A stretch of 64,000 nucleotides of DNA from Schmidtea nova (GCA_044892505.1 CM097883.1:290346001-290410000); one strand, 5' to 3'; positions 32,281-60,248 are shown, counted from the first letter of the stretch. The notes: generated by a model not told the origin, from the letters alone. Translations and numbers: made by a program.

Positions 32281-32671
32281 AAATAAATTAATATAAAATT
32301 AAAATAAATTAATAAATTAATGTTGGGCCCACCAATTGGTCTAAAAAGGCAAAAATATTGTACTAATTTAAACAATAAATACAAATAATAACCACAAAAA
32401 ACATTCGAAAAACCTAAATTAAAAATTAAAATAAAATAATAAATAATAATTACTAAATTTCCAGCAAAGGAAGAAAATCAAATTGACACGAGAACGAGCA
32501 GTATGGGGGTCTGAAATAAGAAAATTACAAATAAAATCAAATAAAAGTACAATTAATTGGTTAATTACTTGAAAAATCAAGACCACCCAGCGAGAAATCT
32601 GAACCGGAAATTTAAAATGGTTTATATTAAAATAAAATAACAAAATTACTTTGATGGACGGCCTGATCCTG

Positions 32672-32706
32672 ATTGGTCAATCTGACCAACTGGATCAGTA
32701 TAAATA
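32672..32706 (+). promoter_or_regulatory. LTR core promoter: reverse CCAAT (ATTGG 32672-32676) + TATAAATA (32699-32706)
   Basis: Same pair with near-identical spacing in the divergent solo LTR (10276-10280, 10302-10309). Confidence 0.7.
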
Positions 32707-33382
32707 CCGATCCAAAAATCATACAGACAACACCTAACAACTTAGTTACCGAACTGAACTATCATAGTCAACTTTGATACGATAAATACTGTATAAATTT
32801 TTGGAGAACACTGCATCGTGGATTTAAACAGTAAATTTTTTTTTTGTATTGTATTTTGTATTAATTTTTATGATATGTTTCATGATTCCCATTTGTTTTA
32901 TTTTCATTTAATATAATTTATTACTATTGCTCTATTTTTTTTTCTTATGCCATTATTTTATGATATAATAAATATACTTCCTCAGTAGCTTACGCTGCGA
33001 GGGAGCAAGCCGTAAATGTGGGATTTCACCGTTCCACAAGATGGTGAGCAGAGTTTCTATTGGTATTCTTTATTTAATTTAATTTTTTCGGAAGTTTCAC
33101 GGTACGGTAAAGTTGTGCAGGGACAAGGACACGAGTAAAATTTGTAGACAGTGGTTAACATTTACATTCGATCAGACAGGCGAAAACAAACTATAATATC
33201 AATTCTCAGGTCGACTAGATCGATTTTTTCATATACACGCAAATTTTTGTAAATCAACATAGCTGATCGAAATAATGTCCGGACACACCGAGACGATTTC
33301 GACGTTTCAACTACAGTTTAATTTAGACATAAACAACGACATATTCGGATCGACACTACTGATTAAATAAGTAAGATCGTAA

Positions 33383-33454
33383 CCTGATCGCTGTACATAG
33401 CGCAGGTAATAATAGGTAAATTTTTAATATTCCGATCGCTGTACATAGCGACGG
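33383..33454 (+). other. Two stem-bulge-stem-loop hairpins with GTACAT loop (33383-33406, 33432-33454)
   Basis: CCTG-AT-CGCT-GTACAT-AGCG-CAGG and CCG-AT-CGCT-GTACAT-AGCG-A-CGG; three covarying copies in the solo LTR. Confidence 0.8.
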
Positions 33455-33610
33455 TGTTAATTGAATAGTTTGGAAAATATTATTTTTATTTCCTCCTTTT
33501 CACATTTTTTTTTGTGTTATTGATCAACGAGCAGAGCACTTTTTATCAGGTCTCGCCAAAATTTACGGATTTATCACAGTAAAATTCTATTAGCATTATT
33601 ATTTTCGCAG

Positions 33611-34111
33611 ATGAAATCAACGATACTGGATGAATTTCTAACAACTCAACGTCATGTGGCACGGGTCGAAAATCCTCTAATCCGGACGCAACGGAAGAAA
33701 TTGAAGTCGCTTCCACAGGAACTCCTCAGAACGCTAAATGCGTTGATGTATAAATGGAGAAGGGAACTAGGAAAGAAATGCCCATTTTCGATTTGGGCCG
33801 GTGGATTGGATACCATCGTATATCGAGGAGGCCCCGGATGGGAAATTCAGGACGAAAGAGACCGGGAGACGACAGCTCTGTTCATCATAGTGGTGTCAGA
33901 CAGCGAAGGAAATCCAACGACAGTGATCCATTGGGGATATGTCTCACCGCTCAAGTTGCTTAAATTCGGGTTGATTCCGAATCACCTACCGAAAACGTGC
34001 CACGGACGCCCCAAACTAAACTGTTCGATGGCTCACATCCGAAGAAATCCAGTCAATCACGGGTTGCATATTACTCCCGTTCACGGCCTCAAGCGAAGTG
34101 TTTTCCACTAA
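33611..34111 (+). CDS. LTR ORF-A, 166 aa, unknown function (5' LTR copy)
   Basis: ATG directly after TTTTCGCAG; GC-richer than flanks; same protein in the 3' LTR. Confidence 0.65.
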   Translation: MKSTILDEFLTTQRHVARVENPLIRTQRKKLKSLPQELLRTLNALMYKWRRELGKKCPFSIWAGGLDTIVYRGGPGWEIQDERDRETTALFIIVVSDSEGNPTTVIHWGYVSPLKLLKFGLIPNHLPKTCHGRPKLNCSMAHIRRNPVNHGLHITPVHGLKRSVFH

Positions 34112-34296
34112 ACATTATATTCACATTTTTATCAACTAAACGATTTCAATAAATTAAATGGTGTTGATCCGTGTTTTTTGTTTGTCCTTAGTTAAATTTA
34201 TTTCTATTTATTTAATCATATGATTTTTACACTCGACGGATAATATTAATCTTGGTAACATGTTTGATGCATTATAAATTGGGTTTGTTATTTAGT

Positions 34297-34887
34297 ATGA
34301 CGGAAACTAGCCAACAGCGAGAATTGGACAAGGCGTGGAGAATCCGCCGAGCATTGGAAAAGGAGCTAAACCAAGAAAAAGCCTTACGAGCCAAAGCAGA
34401 AGCTCAGATTCAGCATTTACGGACCAGCTGGTTCGCACCAGCTCGCATGAAGGAGCAGATGAGTCGGACGAAAAGGGCTCAAAAGACAGCTGACGATTAT
34501 CGCACCGAATGGGAAGCAACAAAAATTGAGTTGCGCCGATGTCTCCATTCGGTGACGACTTCATTTATCGAGTCCGAATTGAAAGCACAAATCCGACCCA
34601 TTACTTACCAGAAATGGGTAGGAGAACAGAAAGTGGCCTGCTCAGTCAGTACGGACACCGATGGACTCGAGGCAACCACAGTGCAGAGTCGGGTGGAAAC
34701 CCCCACTGTACCAAACCCCGTCGGAAGAACGAATAAGTGGAAACGAATCGGCTCCAAGCGCCGTCGCCAAAGAAAGCTGTTTTCTCAACAATTGCAGACA
34801 CAAGTAACCACTATGGCAGAAATGTCGGAGGCCGAGTGGTTATCAGAGATATTCCCTCCAGAAGGAATTTTCAAAGAATTTCTATAA
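34297..34887 (+). CDS. LTR ORF-B, 196 aa, coiled coil + Arg/Lys-rich motif (5' LTR copy)
   Basis: First ATG at 34297 after TTTAG-T; protein-level conservation with 11467-12048. Confidence 0.8.
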   Translation: MTETSQQRELDKAWRIRRALEKELNQEKALRAKAEAQIQHLRTSWFAPARMKEQMSRTKRAQKTADDYRTEWEATKIELRRCLHSVTTSFIESELKAQIRPITYQKWVGEQKVACSVSTDTDGLEATTVQSRVETPTVPNPVGRTNKWKRIGSKRRRQRKLFSQQLQTQVTTMAEMSEAEWLSEIFPPEGIFKEFL

Positions 34888-35382
34888 CAGATAGAATACG
34901 ATGTCCGATTTGGGAGTCAATTAAATCTTTGCTCGTTTTTGTTTTGTTGTTGTTATTTCCTTTGTATTTCTTTCGATTAAATAATTCATATAATTAAATT
35001 TCAATTACCCGTCACACAACGAAAGGAGTAGCGATAAAAAGAACTTGAATATTATCAAATTCGTAGTTTGGTTCTGCTTGTTTGTTTTGTTTTTTTTTTT
35101 TTTGATAAATACATAGCCTCACACACACAAAATAGAACAAGAATTGCGTAAGTCCTTCTACGGCCGCGTGAACCCGTAAGCATAAAGGGGGAGTAGTCCT
35201 AGCAATAGTGCTCACCTGCCCCTCATTGCTTAACCACCCTGCGCATCACCAACTTGGTTATCAAGGGAAATAATCAAGGGCGCTCGAGTGTAGCTTACGA
35301 CTATTTATGCATGATCATGGATGGGAGATCCCTAGCAATCATTAGAATTTTTACCAAACCGTCCATGAACCCAGCATAAATT

Positions 35383-35400
35383 TGGGGGCTCAGCCGGGAT
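35383..35400 (+). promoter_or_regulatory. Primer-binding site, tRNA-Pro type
   Basis: TGGGGGCTCAGCCGGGAT, 18 nt, complementary to a tRNA-Pro 3' end (cf. MLV TGGGGGCTCGTCCGGGAT). Confidence 0.92.
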
Positions 35401-35707
35401 CAACTTCGTTTTATCGGAAAATTGTGAATGCAAAATCTGCAGAGAAGTTTAAAATGCTCGTGTCGTGTGAATAAATTTAATAAAAACAGAAAATTTGTAA
35501 TTAACTCTAAATTATGTACAAAAATAAACAACAAACACAACAGCAAATAAAAGTAAAGTATAAAAATCGAATGCATGCATAAATAATTTGTCGGGACGAC
35601 AATTTTCGGAAACACGGGGAGAGTAAATAAATGCTAAAAGATGCAAAACGAAACATATTACAACGTTAAAATTAAATTCACAAAACGAGACATATTACTA
35701 CTTTAAA

Positions 35708-36211
35708 ATGATAAAAACAACTAAGTTAAAACGATTATTTATTCAGCAAATGGAGGAAAAACTGAAAGAAATCGAAGAATTTCTCAACACAGGAAACGAA
35801 ACACTAGCAACAATTGGCAAGAAAATAAACCGATTTAGAGAAATTGAATTTCAAGAACCCACAACACAGACCGAGGAAACAGATGAATTAATAAAGATAA
35901 CAGAAAGAACAAGTAAAATCGACATAAAAACCCGCTACAAATGGTACCGAGCACGACTAGAGAATGCGGAGCTAAACATTAGATGCAGACAAATAGAACA
36001 ACAATTAACCCCAACATACAATCGATGGAGGGCGCAAGGGGTAGAAGCAGCGAAAAAATACCGACAGTGCTATATATGTGAAAACAACGAGATACAAATT
36101 ATGTTTTTACCTTGTGGACATTTCCGTTTTTGTAAGATCTGTGCCAACAAGTGTGACCGGTGTCCGATGTGCAACTTTGCCGTGAATGAAAAAATTATAG
36201 TTTATTTGTAA
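35708..36211 (+). CDS. Coiled-coil + C-terminal IAP/MDM2-type RING E3 ligase, 167 aa (no BIR)
   Basis: CYICENNEIQIMFLPCGHFRFCKICANKCDRCPMC..V.EKIIVYL-stop fits the IAP-type C3HC4 RING placed at the extreme C-terminus. Confidence 0.88.
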   Translation: MIKTTKLKRLFIQQMEEKLKEIEEFLNTGNETLATIGKKINRFREIEFQEPTTQTEETDELIKITERTSKIDIKTRYKWYRARLENAELNIRCRQIEQQLTPTYNRWRAQGVEAAKKYRQCYICENNEIQIMFLPCGHFRFCKICANKCDRCPMCNFAVNEKIIVYL

Positions 36212-36685
36212 TAAATGTTTAGAGTTAATTAGTAAAATGTCGAATGGTGAATCATGGGAATAATCATTGTATTTAAATAATTTTTGAGCTACTACAAAGT
36301 AGTCCGATAAGAATCCATTGGGGGGTACCAATTGATCAACCTAGTCAAGTATATAGAAAGGGGCCCATCGCAAATGTTGGAAAGTTTTTGTGATGTGATT
36401 GATCACCACATCCTGCATTAATAGACCAACGCGATCTTTTTGTATATTGTGGTTGGGGAGAGAGATAGGGAAATCTTGATGGAGTAAAGCGCGCATAAGA
36501 AAATAAATAAAAAGTTAAAGCAGACTGATCAGGAATTAGTTACGATAGAATAAGGAGATAAATAATAATTTTTGAAAGAATAAAAGGTGCATAGTCAGCT
36601 CGCATAGAAGTAGTTATAACTCAGCTGAGAAATTTTAATCGCTAGCGAAGTAGGGAATTGTGATTAACCGGTTAAGTAAAGTTAA

Positions 36686-36801
36686 GAGATTTGTCCCTTG
36701 AAACAAAGGGTTAGGAGATTTGTCCCTTGAAACAAAGGGTTATTAGAGTTGTCCCTTGAAACAAAGGGTTATTAGCGGTTTGTCCCTTGAAAAAAAGGGT
36801 T
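36686..36801 (+). repeat. 4 x ~28-bp repeat, each forming a CCCTT-GAAACA-AAGGG hairpin
   Basis: Directly visible; fourth loop is GAAAAA. Confidence 0.92.
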
Positions 36802-36969
36802 GAGGCCAATGAGCCATATTGAATGACCTAGCTAGGCGTTATGAGAGATTAAATTGAGGCCAATAGAGCCATTTGAGAGATTAAATTGAGGCCAATAGAG
36901 CCATTTGAGAGAATAAAATAAGGCCAATAGAGCCATGTGAGATATAAAATTGAGGCCAAAAGAGCCATA
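36801..36969 (+). repeat. ~32-bp repeat array carrying GGCCAAT boxes
   Basis: GAGAGATTAAATTGAGGCCAATAGAGCCATTT x4 from 36843 plus one partial copy at 36801. Confidence 0.9.
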
Positions 36970-37577
36970 GTGGATTACAGAGATATCCGGATAAATAGTA
37001 ACAGAGGGAATATAGACCCATAGTGTAATCGTCGACGAGATTTAGAATAGTGCGCACTAGTAGTTAAGAAATGCGAGTAAAGCTGATTATGCAACCTTAA
37101 ATAAAGCATGCAAGGAGAATAATAAAAATTCGAGCTGACCGGAGCAACCGACAGAATGAGTAAAACGATTGCTAGCAGGGAATAATGAATAAAGATGATA
37201 AAATAATGATAAACGAGTCAGAAAGACTCAGGGAATTAGAGCGCTCGAGCGACCAATAAATTGGGAAACTGTGGGAAAAGTAATGGATTTGATAAAACAT
37301 AGATAATTATTACGACATAAATAGATAATTGTGACCAGTCTATAGATAATTTAAATAGACTAAAAATAAAGGGGAATCTGGGAAGGGGAAATAATGAAAA
37401 CCCAGTAATAAGTAATCCCGAAAGAAAGGGAATAAAAGCGCGACGATAACAATAAGGTATCGTTGAGGACCTTTGTATTTTAGATATACAAATCAATCAA
37501 ATCAATCAAGCAACAAGAAGAATCAGAAAAACGATAATAGATAGGACAAGAAAATTGATAATATAAAAGTAATCCAG

Positions 37578-40500
37578 TTGAGAAAAGGAGCAAAGAGTGT
37601 CGCAATAAAGCCAACAAAAAAGCAGAAAGCCGGCAAAGATAACCACAAAAACCCACAAGGGAGTAAAGCGAGGAAAATAATAAGAGATAAATCAATTATC
37701 GAAAACGATAAATTGTCAGTAGTAAGCAACAGCTCAAGTAACAAAGAAAACCAAGCGGAACCCAAGGAGAACCAAACAAGCGAAATAGAAAGCGACGAAA
37801 CTAACAACGATAATATCGAAGAAGTAGAAAACGAGGTAGAACCAGAGGTAGAAACCAACGAGAGTGATAACGAAAGTATAATATCAGATAACATAGTAAT
37901 AAGAGAAACTGAAAGCGATTCAAGCTCGAGTGAAACAGAAGACGAACACAACAACGAATTAGAAACAAGAAGAAACGAAAGGAAAATAACTCAAGACAGC
38001 GGAATTGAAATGAGTGAACCAAGAGAAGAAATAAAGGATAAATTCCCAGGAGAACCATTCAACGGAGATGCGAGTAAATTAGAAATTTTTCTAAAGGAAT
38101 TTGGCATATTCGTGGAAGTATGCAAATGGAAAGCTGAGACAACAGCAAGTAGAATACAGTTATATTTGAAAGATAGCGCATTGGACCTATATTTGGAAGC
38201 AAAAAACGGTACCAATCCACCTACAAGCTGGACAGCGATAAAGGATTTTTTCCAACAAACATTTGGAATAAATAAAGTGCTGAGCGAGGCATTCATAGAA
38301 TTCTCAATGAGGAAACAAAAGATGAATGAATCTAATGCGGTATACGCGAGCGAACTGAAAAAATTAGCAAAATCGGTATTCAAGGATGGAGGTCCAATAA
38401 ACGAGGAGTTAATGGCAGCTATCTTCATAGGAGGACTAAGAAGACCCGACATAAGAGCGCAAGTAGGATGTCAAGGATGCAAAACCATAGATCAAGCGTT
38501 AGAAACAGCTAACCGATTTGAATTGCATATGATAGGGAGCGAAGGCAGAATTTATTTAGCCATGGACACAGCGCAAACCGAACCAGAAATAAATCTCAAC
38601 AATCACATTCCAAATTCGCAACAATTAAACCGACCACCCCCTCAACGAAGGAATGAAGGAAATAAAGCGCAGAACTTTGAAAGCCAAAACAATTACAACC
38701 CTCCAAGACAAACAAAACAATGTAAAACATGCGGGAAGTTAGGACACTGGCAGCAAGAATGCTATCAAAATTTGAATTGCGGAAAATGTGGAGTTAAAGG
38801 ACACTCGGAAAGCAGATGTTCTACAATAATCTGTTTTAATTGCGGACGACCTGGTCACTATTCAAGAAATTGCGGACAAAAAAGTAATCAGCGAGGAAAC
38901 TGGCAGAGTAATGGGAACCGACCAAATTACGGAAATCAAGCAAATACCGTAAACCGACCAGATTATGGAAACCAACAAAACAACAATAACAATAATCAGA
39001 ACAAAACCACCCCCAAAGAAATTCATTTGATGCAAGAAGTTCAAAGGTTGACGGAACTCATAAACAATACGACGAGAGGAAATCCGCAAACCAATCAACA
39101 ACAAATTAGCATGATGAGAAAAATAGAAAGCGAAAACGAACGATTGAATCGAGAAAGTAAAGCACGACACGCTCAGGAATGGGCAAGAATACAAAGAGAG
39201 GATGAACAAAAACAGCAAGAAAGAGAACGACAACCTCTAAGAATTAACATGCTAAGAGCAACAAACCAAACAGACACTCGCGAGAAAGAAATCACACTGG
39301 AAATGAATTCGATAGACCCGAATCCAGCCGACAACGAAAGTCGAAAAGAAATAGTACAAAAAGATGAAGAAGTAGAAAAAGAAGCAGAAAAGGGAGTGGA
39401 AACCGAGATAAACCAGGAAGAGAGGAAAGAGATTTGGAAAAAAGGAATGATGGTAATCATGCCCAACGACCATATGTTTCGATTCCAATATAACGCAAAA
39501 GAAGAAGTGAAAGTATTATTCAACAAAGTAAACCAGATGATTCCAGGAGTAACGAAGCTGCCCAGAGAAGCGTTCTTACAAATAGAGGGTGCACCATCAG
39601 TAAAATTGAAATTAACGGATATATGGGAAAACATGGGAGTAGTAGAAACAAAAAGAAATGTGATGAGAATTAAAGAAATAGAACCAGAAGAAATTCCACC
39701 ACCAATACGTCACGAAACCCGAATCCGGCGAATATTTGAAGGAAAAATGATAAGAAGACGTTTAAAAGAGATAGACGAGTTGGGAAAGAAAATGGAAAAA
39801 GTCGAAGTAATAGAGGACAAGAGTGAACCAACACCAGAAATTGACAAAAACGAACCAGAACCAACGGAGAATATACAAGGAGAAACGAACCAAATAGCAC
39901 ATATTAATATGCTAAGAAATACCACCAGAGAGTTTTCCGATGAAGAAGAAGATAGTGACATCAGTAGCCTAGCAGGAGACATATTAAATGAATCCGAAGA
40001 CGAAAATAAAGAAAGAGAAGTAATAAAGACCTCAGAACCTACACAGATAAAAGTAGATGAAATCCAGAAATTACTAGATAACTCGCTAGAAGTAATATAT
40101 AACGAAGAATTCATGGACAAGAAACAACATCGGAAATTCATGAAAGCATTACTACAAATGAACTACAAAGAATGGTTACAAGAACGGGAGGTAGACATGT
40201 TGAATCGATACGTAGGGAAATTAATAGAGGAACCACTCCTCAATTACACCATCTCAATAATAATAAATACATCTACACCAAGAATCTGGATCAAAACTCC
40301 ATTTACAGACGATATCTACAGATGGGTAGAGGATAGACTAGGGAGCTCATACAAAAACAAATTCATCTATTCGCAGAATAGACTCGTAAAGAAAAGAACG
40401 CACTTAGTAGAAACAGGTATATGGCCAGGAGAAATAACTCTGTTATCAATATGCGATGAAAAGGAAGAAGAGAACCTACAAGAAGTTGCAAGGGAGGCAA

Positions 40501-43007
40501 ACACGTGCTTCGAAAGGAGAATAAAACCTCGGTTAGAATACGAGAAAGAACGAGTCTTACGAAAGAATCTGAATTCCCTGATAGAGCAAATCATACCACA
40601 AGTCAAAAAACATAGAAAGGAGTTAATGAGAAGCGAATACGAGAAATTGAAACAATGTATTGAGTGCATACGTGACACAAGTCACACGAGATGGTCACAA
40701 ATCTCACACGACAAATTAATCGCAAAAATGGGAAAAACAATGTTCAGACAAGGGAAAATAACAGACCTAAAAATTTCAGTGGAATTGCCTAATGAAGACA
40801 CCAAAGAAATTGAAGTAGTAGCGGATTGCACCATTAAAGAATTAATAAATGTCATCAACGAGACACTAGTGCAAAGAGAACCAGAAGACGAATGGGAAGA
40901 CGACATAATCATACAATATAACGAACATGTATTATGGGATCACGATGAAAGACGACTATATAAAATCGGTATATGGGATAATCACCAAACCATCCACGTT
41001 ATCAGAATGGACGATACACCCAGAGAAACTGCTAAAGATGAGAAAAGAGAACGGGAACGACGGAAAGAAGTTGTGCGCAAATTACAACAAATAGTAGACA
41101 TCTATCGAAATTGGCGAATTTGGCCAGAGTGGGAAAATGTATTAGAAGAACTCAATCTCAACAGACGAAGACGAACACCCGTAGAAAAACAATGGAACGA
41201 GAAAGGAAAATGTTGGGTACCAAAGGAAGGGGAATATGAAGAAGAATATGAAAGAGGAATGGAAGATGACTGCGAACCAGAAATGAGAAGGGTTTGCATG
41301 GTGACAAGGAAAGCTACGCCAATAGACCTAGATGGACCAGAAACAGCGGCTATATGGGTAGAAAAGGAAAAGCAAAAAACGGAAGAATTTGTCGAAATAT
41401 TAAAAACTAATGCGCACGGTAAGAGAAAAATAATAAAAGGTCTCGCAGATTTTTTCGTGGTTAATGGAGAAGATATAACATGCTTGCGTAAAGTGGCAAA
41501 GGCAATCGCAGAATATAAAAGAGTTAACGAGTGGTGCCCGGAACAACTAGACCACGTAATTAGGAAATGGAGAAATCAGGAATTCTCGCAGGAAATTCCA
41601 CAAAAAGTGCATTTAAGAATAATATATCCAAACAAGGATAAGGAAGAATTGTGGGTAGGAATAGCAGAAAAAATTCGAGATATTAAAAAGAAATTGAGAT
41701 ACGAACCACCATTCCATTTACAACACCAAGGACGATCATTAAATAACAGTTTGGAAATCGGAATAACGCCAGCACAACTAGATCTCATGAATACCTTGAC
41801 AGTAGAAGCAATAGCAGGTCAACCATTGAAACGCAAAGAAGAAAACCATAAACCACACGGAAGTATAAGTACGCCGAGCCCGATGAAATCAGTACTAACA
41901 CCAGGGACAAGTTCAAGACGATCTGAGACAACACCCAGAGGGAATAGAGAAATGACTCCACCACAACCATACGACGTGGACGAAATTTTAACGGATAGCG
42001 ACGATATGATAGAAGAATTAACCGAATTAACAAAAGAAAAAGACGAGAACATTTTCGAAAGAATACAAGAATTACCTACGACAATACAAGTAACCAACAC
42101 CGGAGAAACAGAAGTCGAAGAAGAAATAATAATAGAAGAAATAAACGATTTGATAGAAGACGAAGCGAGAGGGACGAATGTCGAAAATGTACAATTAACC
42201 CAAGAAATGGAAAGATGGTTAGAAGAAAGAGCTAACGAACCAAGAGATGTCACGGAAGAAACAGGACGAGCAACAAGATTTGTGGAAACGGGTACAGGAA
42301 TGGATAGACGACCTCGAGGTAGACCCAAGACAGATCCGGCAAATGTAGTCATCAGAAATAAGGATGAAAAGAGACAAGATCAATGGGAAGTATGTTTAAA
42401 GAAATTAAATAAAATCGCGGAGATAAAAGAAAAAGAGACAACACCAATACGTCAAGGTGAGGAATGGATATCGAAAACAATAATGGAAATATTGGCAATA
42501 ATTGATCCGGAATTGAAAAAATACTGGCGTATAACTGAGATAAGCGAAAAGGCGAAGTCATTGCACAGCGCAATTGCACCCATCTTACCGGAATTCATAA
42601 AAGAAAAGACGAAGTCAAATCATTTAGACTGGCAAGGAACCACTACGTTAATAAAGAAATTGACAGAAGGAGCGGAAACAGATAACAAATACGTGATAGC
42701 CATTGCATACACCATCTACAACCTACTAACACTGAGTAGAGGTCGACCAAAACCCACTGCGTTGGAAAGACACATAAAAAATACCGCAAAAATTATAGCC
42801 AGAGAAATAGAACCATACATCATTAACAAAGGAGGATGGGAAACATTTATAAAAACTAACCAGAAGAAAACACAAGCCAAGAATATGAAAAAAGAAATTC
42901 GAAAAAATATTGGAAGAGTTAGGAAAAGAACAAGCAGGAACAAGAAACGCGAAGTCATCAATGAATTTGAGTTCTATAATAATGATGATGTTGATATGGA
43001 TGATTAG
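37578..43007 (+). CDS. gag: Extended Gag polyprotein (capsid, 3 x CCHC knuckle, 2-3 ubiquitin-like folds, AT-hook, Bcl-2-like C-terminus)
   Basis: PFNGDASKLEIFLKEF..W...IQLYLKDSALDLY capsid motif; CX2CX4HX4C x3 at 38721-38873; frame open from 37545, first ATG at 38010. Confidence 0.9.
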   Translation: MRKGAKSVAIKPTKKQKAGKDNHKNPQGSKARKIIRDKSIIENDKLSVVSNSSSNKENQAEPKENQTSEIESDETNNDNIEEVENEVEPEVETNESDNESIISDNIVIRETESDSSSSETEDEHNNELETRRNERKITQDSGIEMSEPREEIKDKFPGEPFNGDASKLEIFLKEFGIFVEVCKWKAETTASRIQLYLKDSALDLYLEAKNGTNPPTSWTAIKDFFQQTFGINKVLSEAFIEFSMRKQKMNESNAVYASELKKLAKSVFKDGGPINEELMAAIFIGGLRRPDIRAQVGCQGCKTIDQALETANRFELHMIGSEGRIYLAMDTAQTEPEINLNNHIPNSQQLNRPPPQRRNEGNKAQNFESQNNYNPPRQTKQCKTCGKLGHWQQECYQNLNCGKCGVKGHSESRCSTIICFNCGRPGHYSRNCGQKSNQRGNWQSNGNRPNYGNQANTVNRPDYGNQQNNNNNNQNKTTPKEIHLMQEVQRLTELINNTTRGNPQTNQQQISMMRKIESENERLNRESKARHAQEWARIQREDEQKQQERERQPLRINMLRATNQTDTREKEITLEMNSIDPNPADNESRKEIVQKDEEVEKEAEKGVETEINQEERKEIWKKGMMVIMPNDHMFRFQYNAKEEVKVLFNKVNQMIPGVTKLPREAFLQIEGAPSVKLKLTDIWENMGVVETKRNVMRIKEIEPEEIPPPIRHETRIRRIFEGKMIRRRLKEIDELGKKMEKVEVIEDKSEPTPEIDKNEPEPTENIQGETNQIAHINMLRNTTREFSDEEEDSDISSLAGDILNESEDENKEREVIKTSEPTQIKVDEIQKLLDNSLEVIYNEEFMDKKQHRKFMKALLQMNYKEWLQEREVDMLNRYVGKLIEEPLLNYTISIIINTSTPRIWIKTPFTDDIYRWVEDRLGSSYKNKFIYSQNRLVKKRTHLVETGIWPGEITLLSICDEKEEENLQEVAREANTCFERRIKPRLEYEKERVLRKNLNSLIEQIIPQVKKHRKELMRSEYEKLKQCIECIRDTSHTRWSQISHDKLIAKMGKTMFRQGKITDLKISVELPNEDTKEIEVVADCTIKELINVINETLVQREPEDEWEDDIIIQYNEHVLWDHDERRLYKIGIWDNHQTIHVIRMDDTPRETAKDEKRERERRKEVVRKLQQIVDIYRNWRIWPEWENVLEELNLNRRRRTPVEKQWNEKGKCWVPKEGEYEEEYERGMEDDCEPEMRRVCMVTRKATPIDLDGPETAAIWVEKEKQKTEEFVEILKTNAHGKRKIIKGLADFFVVNGEDITCLRKVAKAIAEYKRVNEWCPEQLDHVIRKWRNQEFSQEIPQKVHLRIIYPNKDKEELWVGIAEKIRDIKKKLRYEPPFHLQHQGRSLNNSLEIGITPAQLDLMNTLTVEAIAGQPLKRKEENHKPHGSISTPSPMKSVLTPGTSSRRSETTPRGNREMTPPQPYDVDEILTDSDDMIEELTELTKEKDENIFERIQELPTTIQVTNTGETEVEEEIIIEEINDLIEDEARGTNVENVQLTQEMERWLEERANEPRDVTEETGRATRFVETGTGMDRRPRGRPKTDPANVVIRNKDEKRQDQWEVCLKKLNKIAEIKEKETTPIRQGEEWISKTIMEILAIIDPELKKYWRITEISEKAKSLHSAIAPILPEFIKEKTKSNHLDWQGTTTLIKKLTEGAETDNKYVIAIAYTIYNLLTLSRGRPKPTALERHIKNTAKIIAREIEPYIINKGGWETFIKTNQKKTQAKNMKKEIRKNIGRVRKRTSRNKKREVINEFEFYNNDDVDMDD

Positions 43008-46000
43008 CACCGATAGCGCAACAGCGTTCGAAGTGTTTGATTGCGACCAAATGAAGTTAGGAGAAAAGTATTCATTGAGAGGCACGGAGCAATGCAAAGA
43101 TGCAACTCCAGTAGAGTTGCAAAAGATTAAAAAGGAACAATGGTACCACGTGTATCAAGAAGCAGAACTCATAAAGACAATGGTGAATGAATGTAAGGTG
43201 CAGAAGACGAGATTCGCATTCTACTGCGGGAGAGGACATTATTCAGCAATTGTCATGCCAGGAACGGAAAGAGAACCAATCGTGTTACAAGGAGAGGACT
43301 GCGAAGCACTGTTTAAACATGGAGAAGTAACAACAAGAGATAAAATCAAGATAAAAGGAAAGCCAGGAATGATGATGCAACAGACGTACTATGTAGCAGG
43401 ACGGATTACGGGAGGAGAAGGATATTGTCAAGGAGAAACCTACCCGATGTTCGGAACACTCGCAACCAACTTAGTGGTGATGGATACGTATATAGTCGAA
43501 CTAAAAAGCTATGAAGCATTCTTCGAACCCACAACGGGAGAAATGAAAACGTTATCCATGTGTAAAATCGACAGGACCATGTGTCAAACGGGAATGTCAA
43601 CATTAGTGTACAAACCAAAGGTGAACGAATGTCAATTACAACTGCTACAAGGAGCAAAGTTCGACGAAATCCAAGGAAAAACGTTCCAGGAAGAAGACGA
43701 TGACGACAAAGCTAGAGCAAAGCATCTCAAGGAAGCTTTAGAGAATAAAAGACAACTGAAACCAGATCATAGAGAAAAACGGATAGAGATGAGAGCCACA
43801 CCAACAGTGTTGATAACCACAAATCAGGATGTGGGAATGAGGTTCATAAAAGGGAAAGCAACCCTTAAGTGTAGTACAACGGTATACGAAACGAATTATC
43901 CAGGAATATATGTGTCAAAACAAGAAGTGCCAAATGCGAAACCCAAAATCGACACAATGGATATCAAACTACACCTATATGTGAATAATAAAATGGATTT
44001 CCTATTCCATAGAGGACAAGCCTCATTACAAAAAGTGTACTACGATCTGATAAACAATGATTGTATATTGAATCGAGAAATATTAAAGACAAAGTTGGCC
44101 GTAGCAATTACGAATCCAGATAGCGCGATGCCATTATTACCACTGAGAGAAGGACATTTCGGAAGAGTGGTTGGAGAAGCAATGTATGTATACATTTGTG
44201 AAAAGACACACGCATCGCTAGCAGCAACAACACAGTTGAAACCTGGAACCTGTACAAATGAGTTAGAAATCGACTACAAAGGAAAAGTACGATACGTTCA
44301 ACCAGTGACGAGAATCATCAATCCACCAGGGTTTGAACCAAATCCATTCAACTGTAGTAATGCGTATGGACCACTTTATCAGAAACCAGATGGTAAATGG
44401 GTTATGTTCCCAGGAAGATCCGAAGTGATAGCACCAAGAGAATTCGAGCTAATGCAGTTGTCAAAGGATAGGCAATTCAGCGACGTAGATGTCTCAAACA
44501 ACGGAATATATAGTCCAAAGGATTTAGAAGCAGCAAGGCAGAATATATTATTTCCAGCGAGAAGAGAAGCATTACTGTCAAATATCGTAACGATAACGGG
44601 AGGAACGGATTATCGAGAAGGACCGAATTACGAACTGTTGTTGTCACCAGCACATTTCAAGAAAGCCACGGAAAATATGATGAAAGCCATGTGGGGAAGA
44701 TTCCTGATATTTGGACAAATGATGGCGGGAATACTGGGGGTCATATTAATAATCCAAATCGTCAGAGTAATAATAACGCAAATGTTAGCGTGTTTCGATA
44801 TATACAAGAGGGAAAAGAAAGTGAATTGGAAAATGGTAGTAGGGTTTTTACCATTCCTTGCGAAAACAATGGTGTTGCATGGACACTCAAAAGATATCCA
44901 CCGAATAAAAAGACTCCTAAAGATACTAGCAAAAATGAAGGGAACAGATGAAGAAGTAGGACGAAAATTTAAAAAGATAATGAATGACGAACAAGCAAGA
45001 CAACAGCTCAAGAGAGAAAGAAAAGGTTTATGGGAGAGGGTGAAAGGATATAAAACCCAAAATGATTCGAGCGACGACGATGATGACGACGACGACTATA
45101 AGGGAGGACAAGTGTACAAGAACCAAGCACCACGATACATCGAAAAGAATCCAGCCGACGCATGGAAATGTTACGCACCTCCGCCAACAATGTATCAAGA
45201 ACCACTACAAGGAGAAAAAAATAGCACGATGCAAATGATGCCAATGACAAATGTATACCCCATGATACCAGAAGATTATAAAATGAGAAGATGTAGAAGT
45301 GTAGATCCACAAGGAGACGCACATACAATCGCCGTAATGTCATCAAACACAGGTCCAGTACTAACCACGACAATAGAGATTAACGGAAGAGAAATCGAAG
45401 CAATGATCGACACTGGAGCAAACATTTCCGCCATCGACATCAAATGGATACCACAGGAGCAAAGACGAGAAATAGAAAGGACAAACGTCCATGTAATTGC
45501 ATGTAGCAAAGAAGTTGTAGAAGTAGCAGGAAGATGGTGGGTAAAAATACGCCACTTAAATACAGAAATCGATACGTACGTAGCAGTCATACCAGCATTA
45601 AGCGTACCTTGCATTATCGGAACAGATTTGATGCCAGCGTTATTTAAAGAAATCGTAATCGATCTCGGAACAATGAGATTAAAGGATCGCACCGGACAAA
45701 TATGCGCAATAGAAGCCAAAGTAACGAGTTCAAAGCAAATGATAATACCGGCAAGAAAGGAAAAAATATGTTACGTAAAAATAGATCCGACAATCCAAGG
45801 CGATATGATTTTCGAACCAAGTAAGAGATTCGAGAAAAGAAAAGCGTTGCCAATGGCAAGAGGACTAGTCAACATAAACAATAATGGGGAAATCCCAATA
45901 AACGTAGTAAATTTCGACGAGGAGGACAAGATAATATACGAAAACGAAAGATTAGGTAAATTAACCCCAATGATGGATATCGAACTACCAATAGCAGGGG

Positions 46001-49000
46001 CAGAGAAAGATAAAGAACCAACCTGGAATATTGATAGTGAATTATTAAATGAGGATCAAAGGAAGCAGCTAGAAAAACTCCTGATAGAGTATAAGGATAT
46101 ATTTGCAGCATCCGATTTAGATCTAGGAACATGTGATGTCACGTTACATACGATACCATTAACCGACGAAACACCAATTGCATTAAGACCATACAAATTA
46201 GCAGAAGCACAGAAAGCAGTAGCGGAAGCAGAAGTGAAGAAAATGTTGGATGCAGAAGTAATCGAACCAAGTTGTTCACCCTGGCAATTTCCAGTAGTAA
46301 TGGTAAAGAAGAAAGACGGAACACAGAGATTCTGCATAGATTATCGAAGATTGAATACAGTGACAAAACGAGATACTTACCCATTACCAGACATCAACGA
46401 AATGCTACTAACATTACAGGGAGCAGCATATTTTACATCGCTAGATCTGAAAAGCGGATACTGGCAAATAAAAATGAAGGAAGAAGATAAAGAGAAAACT
46501 GCCTTTACCATCGGTAGAGACCTATATCAATTTCGAAAGATGCCCTTTGGATTAACAAACGCACCAGCATCATTTCAGAGATGCATGAATTTCGTCACCC
46601 ATGGAATAAAGCAGTGTATGGTCTACATCGACGATTTATTAATCTACTCTAGCACGTTTGAACAGCACATACAGGATATTCGAGATGTATTCGTTAGACT
46701 TAGACAATGGAAGTTAAAACTCAAGCCATCCAAGTGTGATTGGGCGAAAGAGAAAGTAACATTTTTAGGACATATAGTGTCAGCAAAAGGAAAAGAACCG
46801 GATCCTAGAAATATCGACAAAGTAAAGGAATGTCCAGTACCAAAAACAATAACCCAGATACAAGAATTTCTTGGACTATGTGGATATTATAGAAAGTTTA
46901 TAAAAGATTACGCCGGAATAGCAAAACCTATACAGGAACTAGTAAAGAAAGATGTATCCTTCATATGCGGAGACGAACAACAAACAGCTTTCGAGACATT
47001 AAGAGATAAACTGATAACCGCACCCATATTGGTACACCCAGACTTCAAGAAGCCATTCTTACTTGAAACAGACGCAAGCGGATATGCAGCAGGAGCAGTA
47101 TTAGGACAATACGACGATGAAGGAAAAGAACGCGTAATCGGATATTATAGCCGGACATTCAAAAAGCATGAGAAAAATTACTCAGTAACCGAGCGAGAAG
47201 CGTTAGCAATCATACTAGCAATTAAACACTTTAAATATTTATTATGGGGACACATCATCTGTATAACCACAGATCACCAACCGCTTGTGTGGTTAGGACA
47301 ACATAAGGAAACCTCCAGTAGATTAATGCGATGGGCAATGCAGCTACAGGAGTACTCACCAGACATAAAATTTAAATCAGGACGAGCGAATGCGAATGCA
47401 GACTGTATGTCCAGACTGACATTTCCGGAATTAACCGACCCGGATGTACAACGAATTTGTGTATTAATAGCAGAAGATTTAGATTTTAGTGAGTTAAAGA
47501 AAGATCAACAGGAAGACAGAGAGTTAGGACAGATCATAGAGTTCCTAACATCTCGAAATATGGAGGTATTCAAAGATAATAAAGAATTAAAGGAACATAT
47601 AGGAAAATATCAACATCGATATATAATAAATAAAGGATGGTTATTGATACAAGACGGTGAAAAGAGGCTGATGTGTTTACCGGAAAACAGAAGGAAAGAG
47701 ATAATGATCCAATACCACGATGGGAAATTAGGAGGTCATATGTCAGAGAAAAAGACAATAAATCGGATGAGACAGAAATATTATTGGCGAACAATGGAAG
47801 AAGATATAAAAGAATGGATTAAAAATTGCCTAACCTGCGCAACTAGAAAGGATAGTGGGAAGAAATGGAAGAACCCGCTACAACCAATGCCGATACCAGC
47901 AGAGCCAATGACAACTATAGCAATGGACGTAATAGGACCATTACCAGAAAGTTTAAACGGAAATATTTATATATTGGTAATAACGGATTATCTGACGAAA
48001 TTCCCGGAAGCATTTGCCATGCAAGATCAAAAAGCAAAAACCGTAGCAAAAATTTTGGTAGAAGAAATATGTTGCAGATACGGAACTCCAAAACAAATAC
48101 TCACAGACCAAGGAACTAATTTTATGAGCGAGCTATTGAACGAGGTAACAAACTATTTCAGAATAGCAAAATTGAGAACTTCACCATATCACCCGCAAAC
48201 GAATGGACAAACGGAGCGATTCAATGGTACATTGATCAGAATGTTATCAAATTACGTCAGCAGACATCAGACTGATTGGGACGAATATATAAAATTATGT
48301 TTAATGGCATACCGAATGTCGATACATGCAGCAACAAAACTAAGCCCATTTCAACTTATGTATGGAAGAGAATGCAACATGCCCATAGATTTAGAGTATC
48401 AACCACCATTATCGCAATATATGGAAGACGACGACTACATAACCAAATTCAAAGAAAGGATGCAGGAAATATGGAAAACGGCAGAACTCAACATTAAATT
48501 TTATCAGGAAAGTTATAAGGATTTACACGACCAGAAGAAAAATGTTAAAGCGAACGACCTAAAACCAGGAGATTGGGTGATAATAGAAACTCCCGAAATA
48601 ATACCAGGAACTGTTAAGAAACTCCAAAGACCTGGAAGAGGACCTTATGAAATTATATACAAAAAGGACAACAATGTCAAAGTTAAGCTAATAAATCGAC
48701 CGTTAATACGACCCATATATGTAAACACCTGCAGATGTAAGAAGGTGCCTAAAACGATAACTACAACACCAGAGAATCGAATAATAACCAGATCACAAAC
48801 AGCCAGGATAAATATGCTCAGAGCTAACGCAACTGAAGACGACAAAGCAGAAATAAGGCAAAAGGAAATCAGAAATAAAGAAATCATATTGAAGGCGAGA
48901 GAGATAATGGGAAGATGGCATGTTAGAGACGAAGCAGGCATATCAAGGGATATTAGACATATAATTAGCCGTTACGCACAAGGATTACCAACCGAACCAA

Positions 49001-52000
49001 TTATTTCTGAATTATTGGAAAAAATCCCTGAAATACTCTTATTGAAAGATGTAGGAGGACAACCAGCCTTACATAATGCGATAGAGTGTAAAAACATTGA
49101 AAGAGCAAAAGAATTCCTAAAAATCGCAAAAGAAACAAACCAAAACTTGGACGTAGGGAATCGGGAACAAGAAACTCCATTAATGACAGCCGCAATCCAC
49201 CAAGCAGATAAAGAAATGATAGAGCTATTGATAAAAGCCAATTTCAGTTGGACAGAACGAGATAGAGAAGACAAAACAGTCTTAAGTCACGTAATATGGA
49301 GTTCACACAAACTAATGCTGAAACATATAATCGCAAACGCCACATGGGAAATAGACGAATTAATAAAAGGAGACATTATCAAAGAAGCAATCAAAATTGG
49401 GAAATGCGACACGATCCGTAAGTTGATCAAATGGAAACGACCAGAAGAGGATACATGGGTCTTAGACATAAACGAAGTATACAGCGAAGGACAAAACGCG
49501 CTGTTAAGATATCTTCTGAAATTTACTTGTGATCAGAAGACATTACTAACTTTATTAGACAGAGGAAACATAAACATCACAAAAAATGAAGAAGAATACA
49601 AATTCGATAAAGAAAAGGAGGCCTTATTCAACAAGATTAGGAAATGGTGTGCGAAACCACTTGATAAGTTAATAACCTACAAAGACATAAACAATTTTAA
49701 CGAGAAATACCAGATGATAGTAAGTGAGTATGAGGAATTAGTTAAAATCTTAAACCATCCCGAAAAATGCAAACAGGTTTTAGAGAAAAAAGAAAGAGAA
49801 AGTAACAAGAAACTCACACCACTCTTTAAAGCAGAAGCACCATACCAAGCTAGACTAGATGCGATACAAGAAAAAGCAAAAGAACTGTTACCGGAATTCG
49901 AAAATAGTAAACATGCACTGGAAATACTCGGCGCATTAGTTGAAAAAGTACACGCATACGCAAAAGGAACATACAATGGTAACGACATAACAACTATAAA
50001 AAAGGAGATGCCAGTAACATTTTTACTACCAAAGGACGGAATAATGCCCATACATAGAGCTTTACGAAATGGCAAAGATAGAAAAGTAATGGAAATTGCA
50101 CGAATAATGCTAAACTGCGGAAGCAACATGAATATGGTAGACGAGAAAGGAGATACACTCATGATATTTGCAGCAAGGGCCAAAACGAAAACAAAAGTGT
50201 TGGAAGAACTATACAAAGCAGGTGCAGGACTTACAGGAAAAACAGATAAAGATAATTCAATTCTGGATGTAGCATTACTAACACATAATTGGGAAATGGT
50301 CAACTTCATTAAAACAATCTCAAATCAGGAAGAAATAGATTACCTAACTGATACGGTCAGGAAACCCAGTGTACTAACAATGATGCATAATGTCGAACTA
50401 ACAGAAGCAATACTTACGTGGATAAATCCGAATACTAACGAACCAGCATTCAGGATTAATGAGTTTACAGAACATAACCAAAATTGGTGCATAAGAAGTG
50501 CCTTAATAACGTATAAATGGCCAGAGATATTGAAGATGTTTATGGAAAGAAAGGATCTAAGGATCACAACCAGCCCGAAGGAAGAAAAGTACACAGGCAA
50601 ATGGAAAGAATTGATGAAGACATACATCAACAATTGGATCAAGGCCAAAAAGGAAATCTTAGAATATAAATCCACTAACAAAGTAATACCAGAACAGGTA
50701 GAAACACAAGAGTTTGAGGCAAGTAATCTAACGACATTAGCGTATGCGAAACTAATAGAAGAAATCAATGTCGAGGACGACATTTTCGACGAGCCAGGGG
50801 GAGATGACAATACAGATAGTGACGACGGTAACAACTCAGAAAATTCAAACGATCACGAACCACCCGATAAAGAGGAAAACGAGAGAAAAGACAAGAAACG
50901 AGACAAGGAAGAAAAGAAAAGTAAAGACGAAAAACAAAGAGATGAAGAGGGAGAACAAGGAAAAAACGACCAAGGAGATAAAAATGACACCCAAAGAACA
51001 GGTTATAAATCAACCATAAAACCATTCTTCAAACCAGAATTACTATTATTAACAGTGATTTTAACGTTAATTAACCCAAGTCAAGGAATGACATGTGAAG
51101 AAAGGGCAATAATACAAATAAAAAACGCGAAAGGAATCGAACGAGTATGTTGGTCAAAAAAGGACAAAATCACGGAACAAAATAGTCCGATGGATTGCAG
51201 AATCTCAAAACACGAGCAAGAGATCATAGAGATCAATGACCTAGATCTAAATACCTGGTACAAAATATGCACCATTAGAAAACAAAAGCATCCAAGATCA
51301 CACAACACAATCGCATGTGCAAAATACCAAACACCTAAAGCAGCCATGACAATACAACAGTCACCCAAAGGAGATTACATCCTCGGAAAATGTGGAAGAA
51401 CAGAGACACAGGGAACAGAAAACAAAAAACCCCAGGCAACAGATAAGCAAACAACACCAACCCTACGAATTACAATAGAGAGGCCTGAAGCAAGAGTTGC
51501 CACAAACGAAACCGAAAGAGTGTCCTACCAAATGGAAGTATTATGTTTAGCACTCATACTAATAATGATAAAACGATTAGAGGAAGGAATAGAAATTGAA
51601 ACTATGACAATAACAGAAGTAGAAGATACACAGAATACTAACATAAAATGTTGGGCGAGGAATAACGAGGAAATCGGCGTAAACGAAATAAGGAAAAGTC
51701 GAAAACTAACAACGAATAAAGTAATTAAAATATCCGAAGTAAAAGCAGATAAGACGTACAAACTATGCCTACTAGAAAAAGAAACGAACAAGAAAGGTAC
51801 CACAAAATGTAAAACATTTCAACCTGGAGAGGTAATAAAGTTCAGAAGGAGAACGAGGAAGAGAAATAAACAAATCAAGCGGAAAGTAAACATAACATTA
51901 GAAATAAAAGAGATAGAACCAAATGTGAAAGGAGTATGCTGGAGGAAGTACGAAAAAGAAGTAAATAAAAGAACGACACCACAATGTCGAACAAACACAG

Positions 52001-54474: not shown

Positions 54475-54599
54475 GGGCGGATTATGACTGTAAATAATAG
54501 TGTAAATAACAAAGCATTACCGTAATAGTATGGGTATCGATATTATAAAAATTGTAAAAAGATAGAAAAGCAAAGTAAATGATGTATATAATTTAGAAA

Positions 54600-54956
54600 A
54601 TGACCGAACAGGACGAAACAACTGAAATAACTATGGCTATGAGATGGAAAGCGCAATGCGATTTATTAGTACGAACAGTCAACTCATTACAGAACCAACT
54701 AGCGGAAAAACAAATGTTGCTATCAGAAAGTTACAACAACTGTTTCGAACAATTACACAGAATAGAGGAACAACAAAGAGCGATAACTGAACTCACCAGA
54801 GAAAATCAAACAATAAGCAACACCAACCAAAGACAAGCAATAGAAATAAACCATTTAACACGAGGAGAAAGAGAAGGATCCGAAGAAGGATGGATGAGTT
54901 GGGTAATAAATAGATTAAACAACGAAGCGGAACCAGATTCAACGAATGAGCCATAG
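54600..54956 (+). CDS. 118-aa coiled-coil accessory protein
   Basis: Heptad-rich Q/E/L sequence; TAG-AAA-ATG start context shared with neighbours. Confidence 0.7.
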   Translation: MTEQDETTEITMAMRWKAQCDLLVRTVNSLQNQLAEKQMLLSESYNNCFEQLHRIEEQQRAITELTRENQTISNTNQRQAIEINHLTRGEREGSEEGWMSWVINRLNNEAEPDSTNEP

Positions 54957-55048: not shown

Positions 55049-56425
55049 ATGGACAGAGAAGAACGAACAATCGAAATCTTGAGATTAGAAAACAGAAAAT
55101 GGAGCAAGAGGCTCACATGCGGGAAGTGTAACAATTTATTACGAGAACCTAGACAAACGATATGTGGATGTAGAATATGTACAAAATGTATACAAGAATT
55201 AGATGCAACAGGAATAACAACATGCCCAGAATGTAAAGAAGGAAGAATAGTGTTGGACGAAACCAGAACGGATAAAGCAACCCAGAGAGAAATTATGAGC
55301 ACCATAACGGAGTGCGTAAATACACCTTGTACATGGCAAGGACAAATAAGCAATCTAGAAAATCACATGGAAAATTGCGAAGAGAAAAGAGCCGAATGCG
55401 AGAAGTGTCAACAGATAATAATACTAAAAAAGAAAGAACAACACAAGGACGAATGTAAAGAAGAAGAAATCGCATGCAAGTATTGTGAAACTCGAGAGAC
55501 AAGGAGAAGAATCGAAGAAGAACACTTAAATATAACAGAGGAGAAAATATGCGGACAATATGTAAGCAAATGTCCAAACAATTGCGAAATAACAGAAGAA
55601 ATAAAGTTACATGAACATTGGAAAATATGCACCGAAAGGCCAAGAGAATGTCCATATAACAAGCATGGATGCAAGGAAAAGCGGACGCGAAAAACAATGA
55701 AACAACACCTAGAAGAAGCAGCACTAACGCATGTGGAAATGACAAACGAAACGACAAAAGAAACGGAACAGACAATCCAGAAATTAGAAAAAGAAGTAGA
55801 ATCACATAAGATAATGATGAGTTTACTATTAGAAACAAGAGAGCAGTTTGAACTAACTCGCAAAAGAATGGAAGAGAAAATAATAGCCATAGCAGAATTA
55901 GGAAAAGGAATGAAAATACAATATAATCAATTAATACGAGAAATTGACGAAAGAAGGGACTTACCAATCGCACCTTACCTATGGAAAGTAACAGATTTCA
56001 GAGACAAACTAGCAGAAGCCAGAAATATGACGAAAACAGCAGTAATAAGCCCACCATTTTATTTATGGAAAAATGGGGTTAAAATAAGATTGAAAGTATA
56101 CCCAAATGGAGACGGAAGAGGACAAGGAACACACGTGTCAATATTTTTCTCGCTATGTAAAGGAGAATACGATGACCTAATAGAATGGCCCTTGAAAGTA
56201 GGAGTCATTATAAGAATCAGGAGTGTGGGAAAACCAGTAGAAAAGTTCTTTGAAACAGACAAACATACGAGTACGAGCGAAAAACCAACGACAGAATGCG
56301 GACTAGCAGCAGGAGAACCAATGTTTATAAGGAAAGAAAACCTATGGGAACGACTATATGCAGACACGCTATACATAGAGATGGAGAGGCATGAGAAAAC
56401 GGATAAAAAAGGATGGTTGGCGTAA
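55049..56425 (+). CDS. TRAF: TRAF-family protein (RING, TRAF zinc fingers, coiled coil, MATH), intronless, 458 aa
   Basis: CGKCNNLL.EP.QT.CGCR.C..C RING; five Zn-finger-like repeats; YLWKVTDF, ISPPFY, KVYPNGDGRGQGTHVSIFF.LCKGEYDDL.EWP MATH motifs. Confidence 0.95.
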   Translation: MDREERTIEILRLENRKWSKRLTCGKCNNLLREPRQTICGCRICTKCIQELDATGITTCPECKEGRIVLDETRTDKATQREIMSTITECVNTPCTWQGQISNLENHMENCEEKRAECEKCQQIIILKKKEQHKDECKEEEIACKYCETRETRRRIEEEHLNITEEKICGQYVSKCPNNCEITEEIKLHEHWKICTERPRECPYNKHGCKEKRTRKTMKQHLEEAALTHVEMTNETTKETEQTIQKLEKEVESHKIMMSLLLETREQFELTRKRMEEKIIAIAELGKGMKIQYNQLIREIDERRDLPIAPYLWKVTDFRDKLAEARNMTKTAVISPPFYLWKNGVKIRLKVYPNGDGRGQGTHVSIFFSLCKGEYDDLIEWPLKVGVIIRIRSVGKPVEKFFETDKHTSTSEKPTTECGLAAGEPMFIRKENLWERLYADTLYIEMERHEKTDKKGWLA

Positions 56426-59747: not shown

Positions 59748-60248
59748 ATGAAATCAACGATACTGGATGAATTTCTAACAACTCAACGTCATGTGGCACG
59801 GGTCGAAAATCCTCTAATCCGGACGCAACGGAAGAAATTGAAGTCGCTTCCACAGGAACTCCTCAGAACGCTAAATGCGTTGATGTATAAATGGAGAAGG
59901 GAACTAGGAAAGAAATGCCCATTTTCGATTTGGGCCGGTGGATTGGATACCATCGTATATCGAGGAGGCCCCGGATGGGAAATTCAGGACGAAAGAGACC
60001 GGGAGACGACAGCTTTGTTCATCATAGTGGTGTCAGACAGCGAAGGAAATCCAACGACAGTGATCCATTGGGGATATGTCTCACCGCTCAAGTTGCTTAA
60101 ATTCGGGTTGATTCCGAATCACCTACCGAAAACGTGCCACGGACGCCCCAAACTAAACTGTTCGATGGCTCACATCCGACGAAATCCAGTCAATCACGGG
60201 TTGCATATTACTCCCGTTCACGGCCTCAAGCGAAGTGTTTTCCACTAA
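59748..60248 (+). CDS. LTR ORF-A (3' LTR copy)
   Basis: Identical protein to 33611-34111. Confidence 0.65.
   Translation: MKSTILDEFLTTQRHVARVENPLIRTQRKKLKSLPQELLRTLNALMYKWRRELGKKCPFSIWAGGLDTIVYRGGPGWEIQDERDRETTALFIIVVSDSEGNPTTVIHWGYVSPLKLLKFGLIPNHLPKTCHGRPKLNCSMAHIRRNPVNHGLHITPVHGLKRSVFH

Follow-up and report, generated by a model that had tools for sequence, protein, structure and literature searches.

The window analyzed here is a stretch of 64,000 nucleotides (nt) from Schmidtea nova (GCA_044892505.1 CM097883.1:290346001-290410000), read on one strand, and within it lies a young long terminal repeat (LTR) retroelement of about 29.4 kb, the two LTRs of which begin at 32321 and 58458, with 99.8% identity between them over 3044 nt. 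The subject of the present study is a Bcl-2-like domain that this element encodes directly before its envelope protein (Env), together with the position of the domain within the polyprotein, its homologs and its putative role in the host cell. The element comprises the following features.

32321-35614, plus strand: 5' LTR of about 3.3 kb (TGTT...AACA), its right end deduced from the sequence
35708-36211, plus strand: accessory open reading frame (ORF) with a C3HC4 RING of the inhibitor of apoptosis (IAP) type, no BIR found (Pfam zf-C3HC4_3, E 3e-11)
36681-36968, plus strand: leader tandem repeats with units of 29 and 32 nt
37545-43007, plus strand: ORF1 of the window copy, first ATG at 38010; its stop lies after the frameshift
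40758-41012, plus strand: ubiquitin-like domain 1 (Pfam Ubiquitin_4, E 0.08 alone)
41598-41822, plus strand: probable ubiquitin-like domain 2, weak (24% alignment to domain 1)
42309-42329, plus strand: RGRP (AT-hook-like) motif, directly upstream of the Bcl-2-like domain
42381-42872, plus strand: Bcl-2-like domain, 164 amino acids modeled, predicted bundle at 42450-42863
42678-42734, plus strand: BH1 position, with TDNK replacing NWGR, and hydrophobic core helix alpha5
42807-42848, plus strand: BH2 motif IEPYIINKGGWETF
42889-42918, plus strand: loss of register against sister copies (copy-specific frameshift)
42961-43026, plus strand: hydrophobic Env signal segment, which in unbroken copies starts 48 residues past GGW
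43027-44810, plus strand: Env, a mononegavirus/gB-type fusion glycoprotein (Pfam PF24664, E 1.5e-70)
45367-48195, plus strand: protease, possible dUTPase-like spacer, reverse transcriptase (RT), RNase H and integrase
49009-49311, plus strand: ankyrin repeats; ORF2 continues to 54474 with more hydrophobic segments
55049-56425, plus strand: TRAF-like accessory gene with RING, TRAF zinc fingers and MATH (Pfam MATH_2, E 5e-21; zf-TRAF, E 8e-7)
58458-61751, plus strand: 3' LTR, its final part under N, where its end and the target-site duplication are hidden

Position of the domain in the polyprotein

In the window copy, ORF1 contains Gag, three CCHC knuckles, two ubiquitin-like domains and the Bcl-2-like domain, and ORF2 (42889-54474) contains Env, protease, RT, RNase H, integrase and ankyrin repeats. 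Genome-wide, 1129 candidate copies were detected, and the 150 of them that were scored all have at least 94% identity; a stop inside the domain was found in 7 of these 150 copies and open frames of more than 5,600 residues in about 33 (counted by eye). BH2 and the start of Env share one frame in all 29 sister loci that were fetched (28 open, one with a stop), and in a second set, which was selected by Env and partly overlaps the first, 25 of 29 copies were open and four gave no call. Among the copies examined, the window copy alone is out of frame, losing register with six sisters within 42889-42918, and its frameshift is copy-specific, being either a mutation or an assembly error.

The unbroken layout is one Gag-Ubl-Bcl2-Env-Pol polyprotein of about 5,650 residues (Ubl, ubiquitin-like), in which the domain is internal. 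The initial annotation had placed the domain at the C-terminus of Gag; this placement has to be given up, since the ORF1 stop follows the copy-specific frameshift and the domain is in frame with Env in the sister copies. For the latter reason, we also rejected programmed frameshifting from ORF1 into ORF2. As the window copy is frameshifted, it would therefore give an unanchored form of the domain, if any.

Homologs, motifs and predicted fold

A search of the genome with the Pfam Bcl-2 model led to host genes and to two element families, B and C, which carry the domain directly before Env and reach 34.0, 34.6 and 31.0 bits (cut-off 31.4); families D and E were found by additional searches. At one locus each of families B, C and D, the Gag, Bcl-2-like, Env and Pol parts lie in a single frame. 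Between families, the identity of the domain is 15-30%, the gap-free alignment of family E and the window domain giving 30%. At least five element families of the genome carry the domain, with polyproteins of about 5,650 amino acids (one family), about 5,000 (one) and about 3,000 (three), and it is therefore not confined to the largest elements. The RGRP motif recurs in family B and in the database proteins P0002 and P0003.

The likeness to Bcl-2 put forward in the initial annotation stands in so far as the window domain scores 14.7 bits against a profile of seven cellular Bcl-2 sequences, a value reached by none of 1962 scored shuffles (maximum 8.1), and 17.3 bits against a profile of families B, C and D only (0 of 1979 shuffles). 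It does not stand for the domain alone, which is non-significant against Pfam Bcl-2 (E 0.11, 13.4 bits, cut-off 31.4); with phmmer against the PDB, its best Bcl-xL row has E 0.86 and lies below an eIF3a row at 0.5, it has no usable match in the ESM Atlas, and a homolog search returned none at E≤0.01 among 100 candidates. Together with a poor single-sequence fold (predicted local distance difference test (pLDDT) 45), which was discarded, these single-sequence searches are what could be held in favor of a chance likeness, that is, a helical stretch whose GGW mimics BH2. We consider such a coincidence very improbable and already largely refuted by the shuffle controls, by the profile matches and structural ranking given below, and by the same position of the domain in families that pass the Pfam cut-off.

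A four-row profile searched against 1.84 billion representatives returned nine proteins, namely two ordinary Bcl-2 proteins and seven others; in four of these seven, Env follows the domain directly, and one carries Gag and a ubiquitin-like domain upstream of the domain. ENA and JGI/IMG assemblies contain related proteins of the Gag-Bcl2 or Bcl2-Env type (P0002, P0003, P0004, P0007 and P0009), and in an alignment search against longer proteins P0002 was the sole match among 7993 scored. Alignment A2 comprises 23 element-only rows, taken from the five families and the seven database proteins, and no cellular Bcl-2. Its profile matches Bcl-xL at E 7e-9 over alpha4-alpha8 (BH1-BH2), and in hhalign it reaches 96.6% probability against an alignment of cellular Bcl-2 sequences. 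Some caution is needed here, as the database rows came from a profile that included the window sequence, and as A2 leans towards Bcl-2, the Pfam Bcl-2 model having been used to find families B and C. Moreover, a profile of the window domain and family E finds no Bcl-2 match in the PDB at E≤1, and the same two alone reach 62% in hhalign against the cellular alignment and 81% against families B, C and D; the bromodomain rows topping that PDB search (E 0.35 or worse) were taken as chance matches. Overall, these sequence comparisons lead us to conclude that the domain is a divergent homolog of Bcl-2.

The four motifs singled out in the initial annotation are all located in ORF1 (37545-43007, plus strand), namely ILAIIDPEL at 42489-42515, LIKKLTEG at 42648-42671, YVIAIAYTIYNLL at 42690-42728 and IEPYIINKGGWETF at 42807-42848, and what had been said about them is borne out in part. 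The match of the last motif to BH2 of Bcl-xL is upheld by the A2 profile and by the conservation of the motif (W-I-x-x-x-G-G-W, which reads YIINKGGW in the window domain), with GG in 23 of 23 rows, the following W in 22 of 23 and a first aromatic residue that is W in 15 and Y in 7 of 23. Both the Bcl-xL alignment and the structural matches place a hydrophobic helix at the BH1/alpha5 distance, as had been proposed, and NWGR is indeed missing, with TDNK at that place. The column of the NWGR arginine is nonetheless occupied by K or R in all 23 rows, and the columns next to it vary freely; in known complexes, this arginine contacts the Asp of BH3 (excerpts of PMC9027176). What had to be dropped is the interpretation of ILAIIDPEL as BH3, since it occupies model residues 37-45 at the end of alpha1, with its Asp 61 residues before the basic residue of BH1, compared with 45-46 residues in the cellular sequences L031 and P0006 (counted by hand). 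In each of the 11 relatives measured (seven loci and four database proteins), BH2 is followed by a hydrophobic segment, which starts 42-62 residues past GGW and terminates directly ahead of Env.

AlphaFold2 run with A2 returned a Bcl-2-like bundle, as the initial annotation had anticipated, with pLDDT 68.6, a predicted template modeling score (pTM) of 0.69, core blocks at 73-86 and one loop block at 65. Judged by their order and the aligned range, the helices would correspond to alpha1 (residues 24-41), alpha2 (51-68), alpha4 (84-95), alpha5 (101-118) and alpha6-7 (125-149). All rows listed by Foldseek against the PDB belong to the Bcl-2 family (best E 0.022), and against a viral library herpesvirus Bcl-2 proteins lead (best E 0.15). 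With the independent structural aligner VIA, ranks 1-16 among 48,161 chains are Bcl-2 family members, the best match being KsBcl-2 (Z 9.1, root-mean-square deviation 3.6, 120 aligned, model 20-164 on chain 6-145). Less favorable to a Bcl-2 fold are the lack of any Foldseek row at E 0.001, the Z of 9.1, which is below the value of about 13 under which VIA advises caution with helical bundles, and the first 50 residues, which are modeled at pLDDT 45-60 and because of which the shape of the groove is uncertain. With Z below this value, we base the case for the fold on the uniformity of the ranking combined with the sequence comparisons, and on these grounds the modeled domain very probably has a Bcl-2 fold.

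Possible role in the host cell

As to what a Bcl-2 fold in front of Env could be good for, we lean towards the view that the domain of this Burro-like giant gypsy element (see the comparison below) is a putative membrane-anchored inhibitor of host-cell apoptosis. The element protease would free the N-terminal side of the domain, the last INML/VCMV-type junction lying at 41292, and signal peptidase would sever Env behind the hydrophobic segment. The Bcl-2 piece could thereby retain this segment at its C-terminus as a membrane anchor, and its fold would be exposed to the cytosol, as is that of cellular Bcl-2; the groove between alpha2 and alpha5, with its kept Lys/Arg of BH1, might then bind the BH3 helices of host pro-death proteins. 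Also counted in support of an apoptosis inhibitor are the IAP-type RING and the TRAF gene carried by the element and a BIR-bearing ORF found elsewhere in the genome.

A candidate target would be the Bak-like gene at L035/L166. L035 and L037 are two host BH1-BH2 exons, about 130 kb apart on C1, which we take to be Bak-like, and a BH3-bearing exon (L166:9396-9578, minus strand) is found some 11 kb upstream of one of the two. The host Bcl-2 gene L031 is 99% identical to Bcl2-2 of Schmidtea mediterranea. A complex prediction of the domain with the host Bak-like BH3 segment scored 0.00, with the alignment unused, and speaks neither for nor against binding.

Several observations count against an inhibitor of this kind. 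A BH3 motif is absent from the domain, the model helix at 51-68 (alpha2) being without Asp, and NWGR has lost its N, W and G (Gly is present in one of 23 rows), of which the Gly is described as important for Bcl-2 family interactions (excerpts of PMC9027176). Furthermore, a signal-peptide anchor would presumably put the domain at the endoplasmic reticulum and not at mitochondria. Lastly, purifying selection on the domain is no stronger than on the adjacent acidic linker: in copies selected by Env, the ratio of nonsynonymous to synonymous polymorphism (pN/pS) is 0.112 for the domain (28 of 29 placed), 0.118 for the upstream linker and 0.034 for Env. The similarity of the first two values shows constraint on the polyprotein, not Bcl-2 function. 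A ratio of nonsynonymous to synonymous substitutions (dN/dS) of 0.06 was discarded in favor of the Env-selected estimate, because its 30 copies had been chosen by likeness within the domain itself.

Equal pN/pS of domain and linker, an identity between families of only 15-30% and the drift of the window/E clade beneath detection would fit an old capture that has become a structural or membrane part without influence on cell death, such as a folded spacer or a tether before the Env signal. This seems rather improbable to us, given that the GGW, AY, P and K/R columns are kept throughout the five families and the seven database proteins and that further death-pathway genes accompany these elements (excerpts of PMC6431247). 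That the capture itself is old and single, and was inherited with the element, is likely. In a tree of the 23 element and seven cellular rows, a branch separates the element rows from the cellular ones (support 92/90, not starred). This topology allows one old capture and does not demonstrate it, and the tree cannot name the donor gene because the seven cellular rows are few and long-branched.

Poxvirus proteins with a Bcl-2 fold, such as A52, K7 and B14, block innate-immune signaling by binding to adaptors. One could hence imagine that the element domain has a Bcl-2 fold that does not bind BH3 and that blocks innate-immune signaling via adaptors, together with the TRAF, RING, ubiquitin-like and ankyrin modules of the element. 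The loss of NWG and BH3 would agree with this, as would the TRAF, RING and ankyrin repeats that the element encodes and the structural match to A52 (rank 30, Z 5.8). However, the top structural matches (KsBcl-2, HyBcl-2-4, Mcl-1 and Bcl-xL) bind BH3, BH2 is retained and the basic residue of BH1 is found in 23 of 23 rows, and we therefore regard a role in immune signaling as unlikely, albeit less so than a mere spacer.

Returning to apoptosis inhibition, a more far-reaching version, which we put forward as a tentative and rather doubtful proposal, would be that the element lineage has long kept a working viral Bcl-2, the groove of which lost NWG and retained the basic residue of BH1. A single cleavage at the Env signal would then yield both a fusogen and a tail-anchored inhibitor that disarms the planarian Bak-like protein. 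If this were true, hundreds of young de-repressed copies could shape cell death in planarian tissues. Should the domain act as the membrane-anchored inhibitor proposed above, it would represent a viral Bcl-2 that is carried by a retroelement and gains its anchor in an unusual way. The five-family alignment, the support for the fold and the retained basic residue of BH1 provide a starting point for work on function.

The remaining parts of the element can be summarized as follows. Ubiquitin-like domain 1, combined with sister families into a profile, finds ubiquitin-like PDB chains (best E 4e-4), and domain 2 searched alone gave no match in Pfam. The motifs ISMM, INML, VCMV, ICAI and ICVL recur at domain joints (39105, 39243, 39903, 41292, 45700, 47455 and 48808), a position from which the repeated INML/VCMV/ICVL-type motifs are likely to be protease cleavage sites. 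Hydropathy places a membrane segment of Env near 44731-44775, and the top PDB rows for the spacer between protease and RT are dCTP deaminase/dUTPase, at a weak E of only 0.05. Past the ankyrin repeats (51000-54474), the polyprotein contains four strongly hydrophobic segments as well as cysteine-spaced beta-rich repeats, which have no Pfam match and which we assume to resemble fibronectin type III domains; this combination points to additional surface proteins being released from the polyprotein.

Downstream of pol, the TRAF-like gene (55049-56425) is complete and intronless and includes a coiled coil. Further accessory ORFs at 54597-54956, 56539-57600 and 57680-58240 encode two coiled-coil proteins and one small protein with a hydrophobic segment at each end. 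Each LTR contains two intact ORFs of 166 and 206 amino acids without a convincing Pfam match (33611-34111 and 34267-34887, with copies at 59748-60248 and 60404-61024), and beyond the 3' LTR lies a fragment of a DDE_1 (pogo-type) transposase (63209-63676, minus strand). No BIR was matched by Pfam in nine scanned ORFs, nor was a BIR pattern found in the six frames of the element. The BIR-bearing ORF mentioned above (399-406 amino acids) occurs in many genomic repeats (1295 candidates, 150 scored, all above the cut-off) and is probably an IAP-like gene of a different element family.

Comparison with known systems

The closest known system is that of the Burro / GYPSM1 giant gypsy-like LTR elements of Schmidtea mediterranea and Dugesia (Jurka 2007 and Grohme et al. 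2018, cited in excerpts of PMC6431247). The initial annotation knew of no retrotransposon with a Bcl-2 fold, and this has to be corrected: according to the same excerpts, planarian Burro elements, which exceed 30 kb, carry a BCL2-like motif that is preceded by a ubiquitin-like domain and followed by Env in frame, a finding credited there to Grohme et al. 2018. These elements are further described as containing a single huge ORF, Gag with two to three CCHC knuckles, a mononegavirus-like Env between BCL2 and protease, a dUTPase-like region between protease and RT, MATH/TRAF, which can lie inside ORF1 or upstream, BIR, which is noted for Burro-1 to -4, and ankyrin repeats. The role of the domains they carry is called 'worthy of experimental confirmation' (excerpts of PMC6431247), and in the literature searched we did not find a functional test of these retroelement Bcl-2 domains.

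Judged from this published layout and not from a direct sequence comparison with Burro-1 to -4, the window element shares with Burro a size of about 30 kb, long LTRs, three CCHC knuckles, tandem repeats and a planarian host, the order of ubiquitin-like domain, BCL2-like motif, in-frame mononegavirus-like Env and protease, as well as ankyrin repeats and MATH/TRAF. It differs in that its TRAF has an ORF of its own downstream of pol, in that no BIR was found and in that the window copy is frameshifted; the polyprotein of its family has about 5,640-5,690 amino acids, compared with 4,873 and 5,140 in Burro (excerpts of PMC6431247). Because no BIR was found, we file the element as Burro-like and not as one of Burro-1 to -4.

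Env likewise lies between Gag and Pol in the GAG-ENV-POL errantiviruses of Platyhelminthes, which have an Env of HSV/gB type (HSV, herpes simplex virus) and include six Schmidtea elements (PMC13524379, as far as accessible). The word 'Bcl' has 0 occurrences in the accessible text and seven supplements of that paper, which thus does not deal with the domain, and passages of PMC13238120, PMC8532177 and PMC11410931 contain nothing on a Bcl-2 domain. In planarians with a PIWI knock-down, the level of BURRO1 RNA increases (passages of PMC8532177).

Among proteins of known structure, viral Bcl-2 (KsBcl-2 of Kaposi's sarcoma-associated herpesvirus (KSHV), BHRF1 of Epstein-Barr virus (EBV), A179L of African swine fever virus (ASFV) and M11L of myxoma virus) and cellular Mcl-1/Bcl-xL superpose on the predicted bundle along the entire domain, with Z 5.9-9.1, and have in common with the window domain BH2 and the basic residue of BH1. 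Unlike them, the window domain is without NWG and BH3, lies inside a retroelement polyprotein and has as its putative anchor the Env signal segment. Overall, the window domain is a real, divergent Bcl-2-fold domain in a further member of a published kind of element and, as the BCL2-like motif has already been published, the finding itself adds little. What the present study adds is that the NWGR arginine survives as K/R and that the Env signal segment occupies the place of the Bcl-2 tail anchor.

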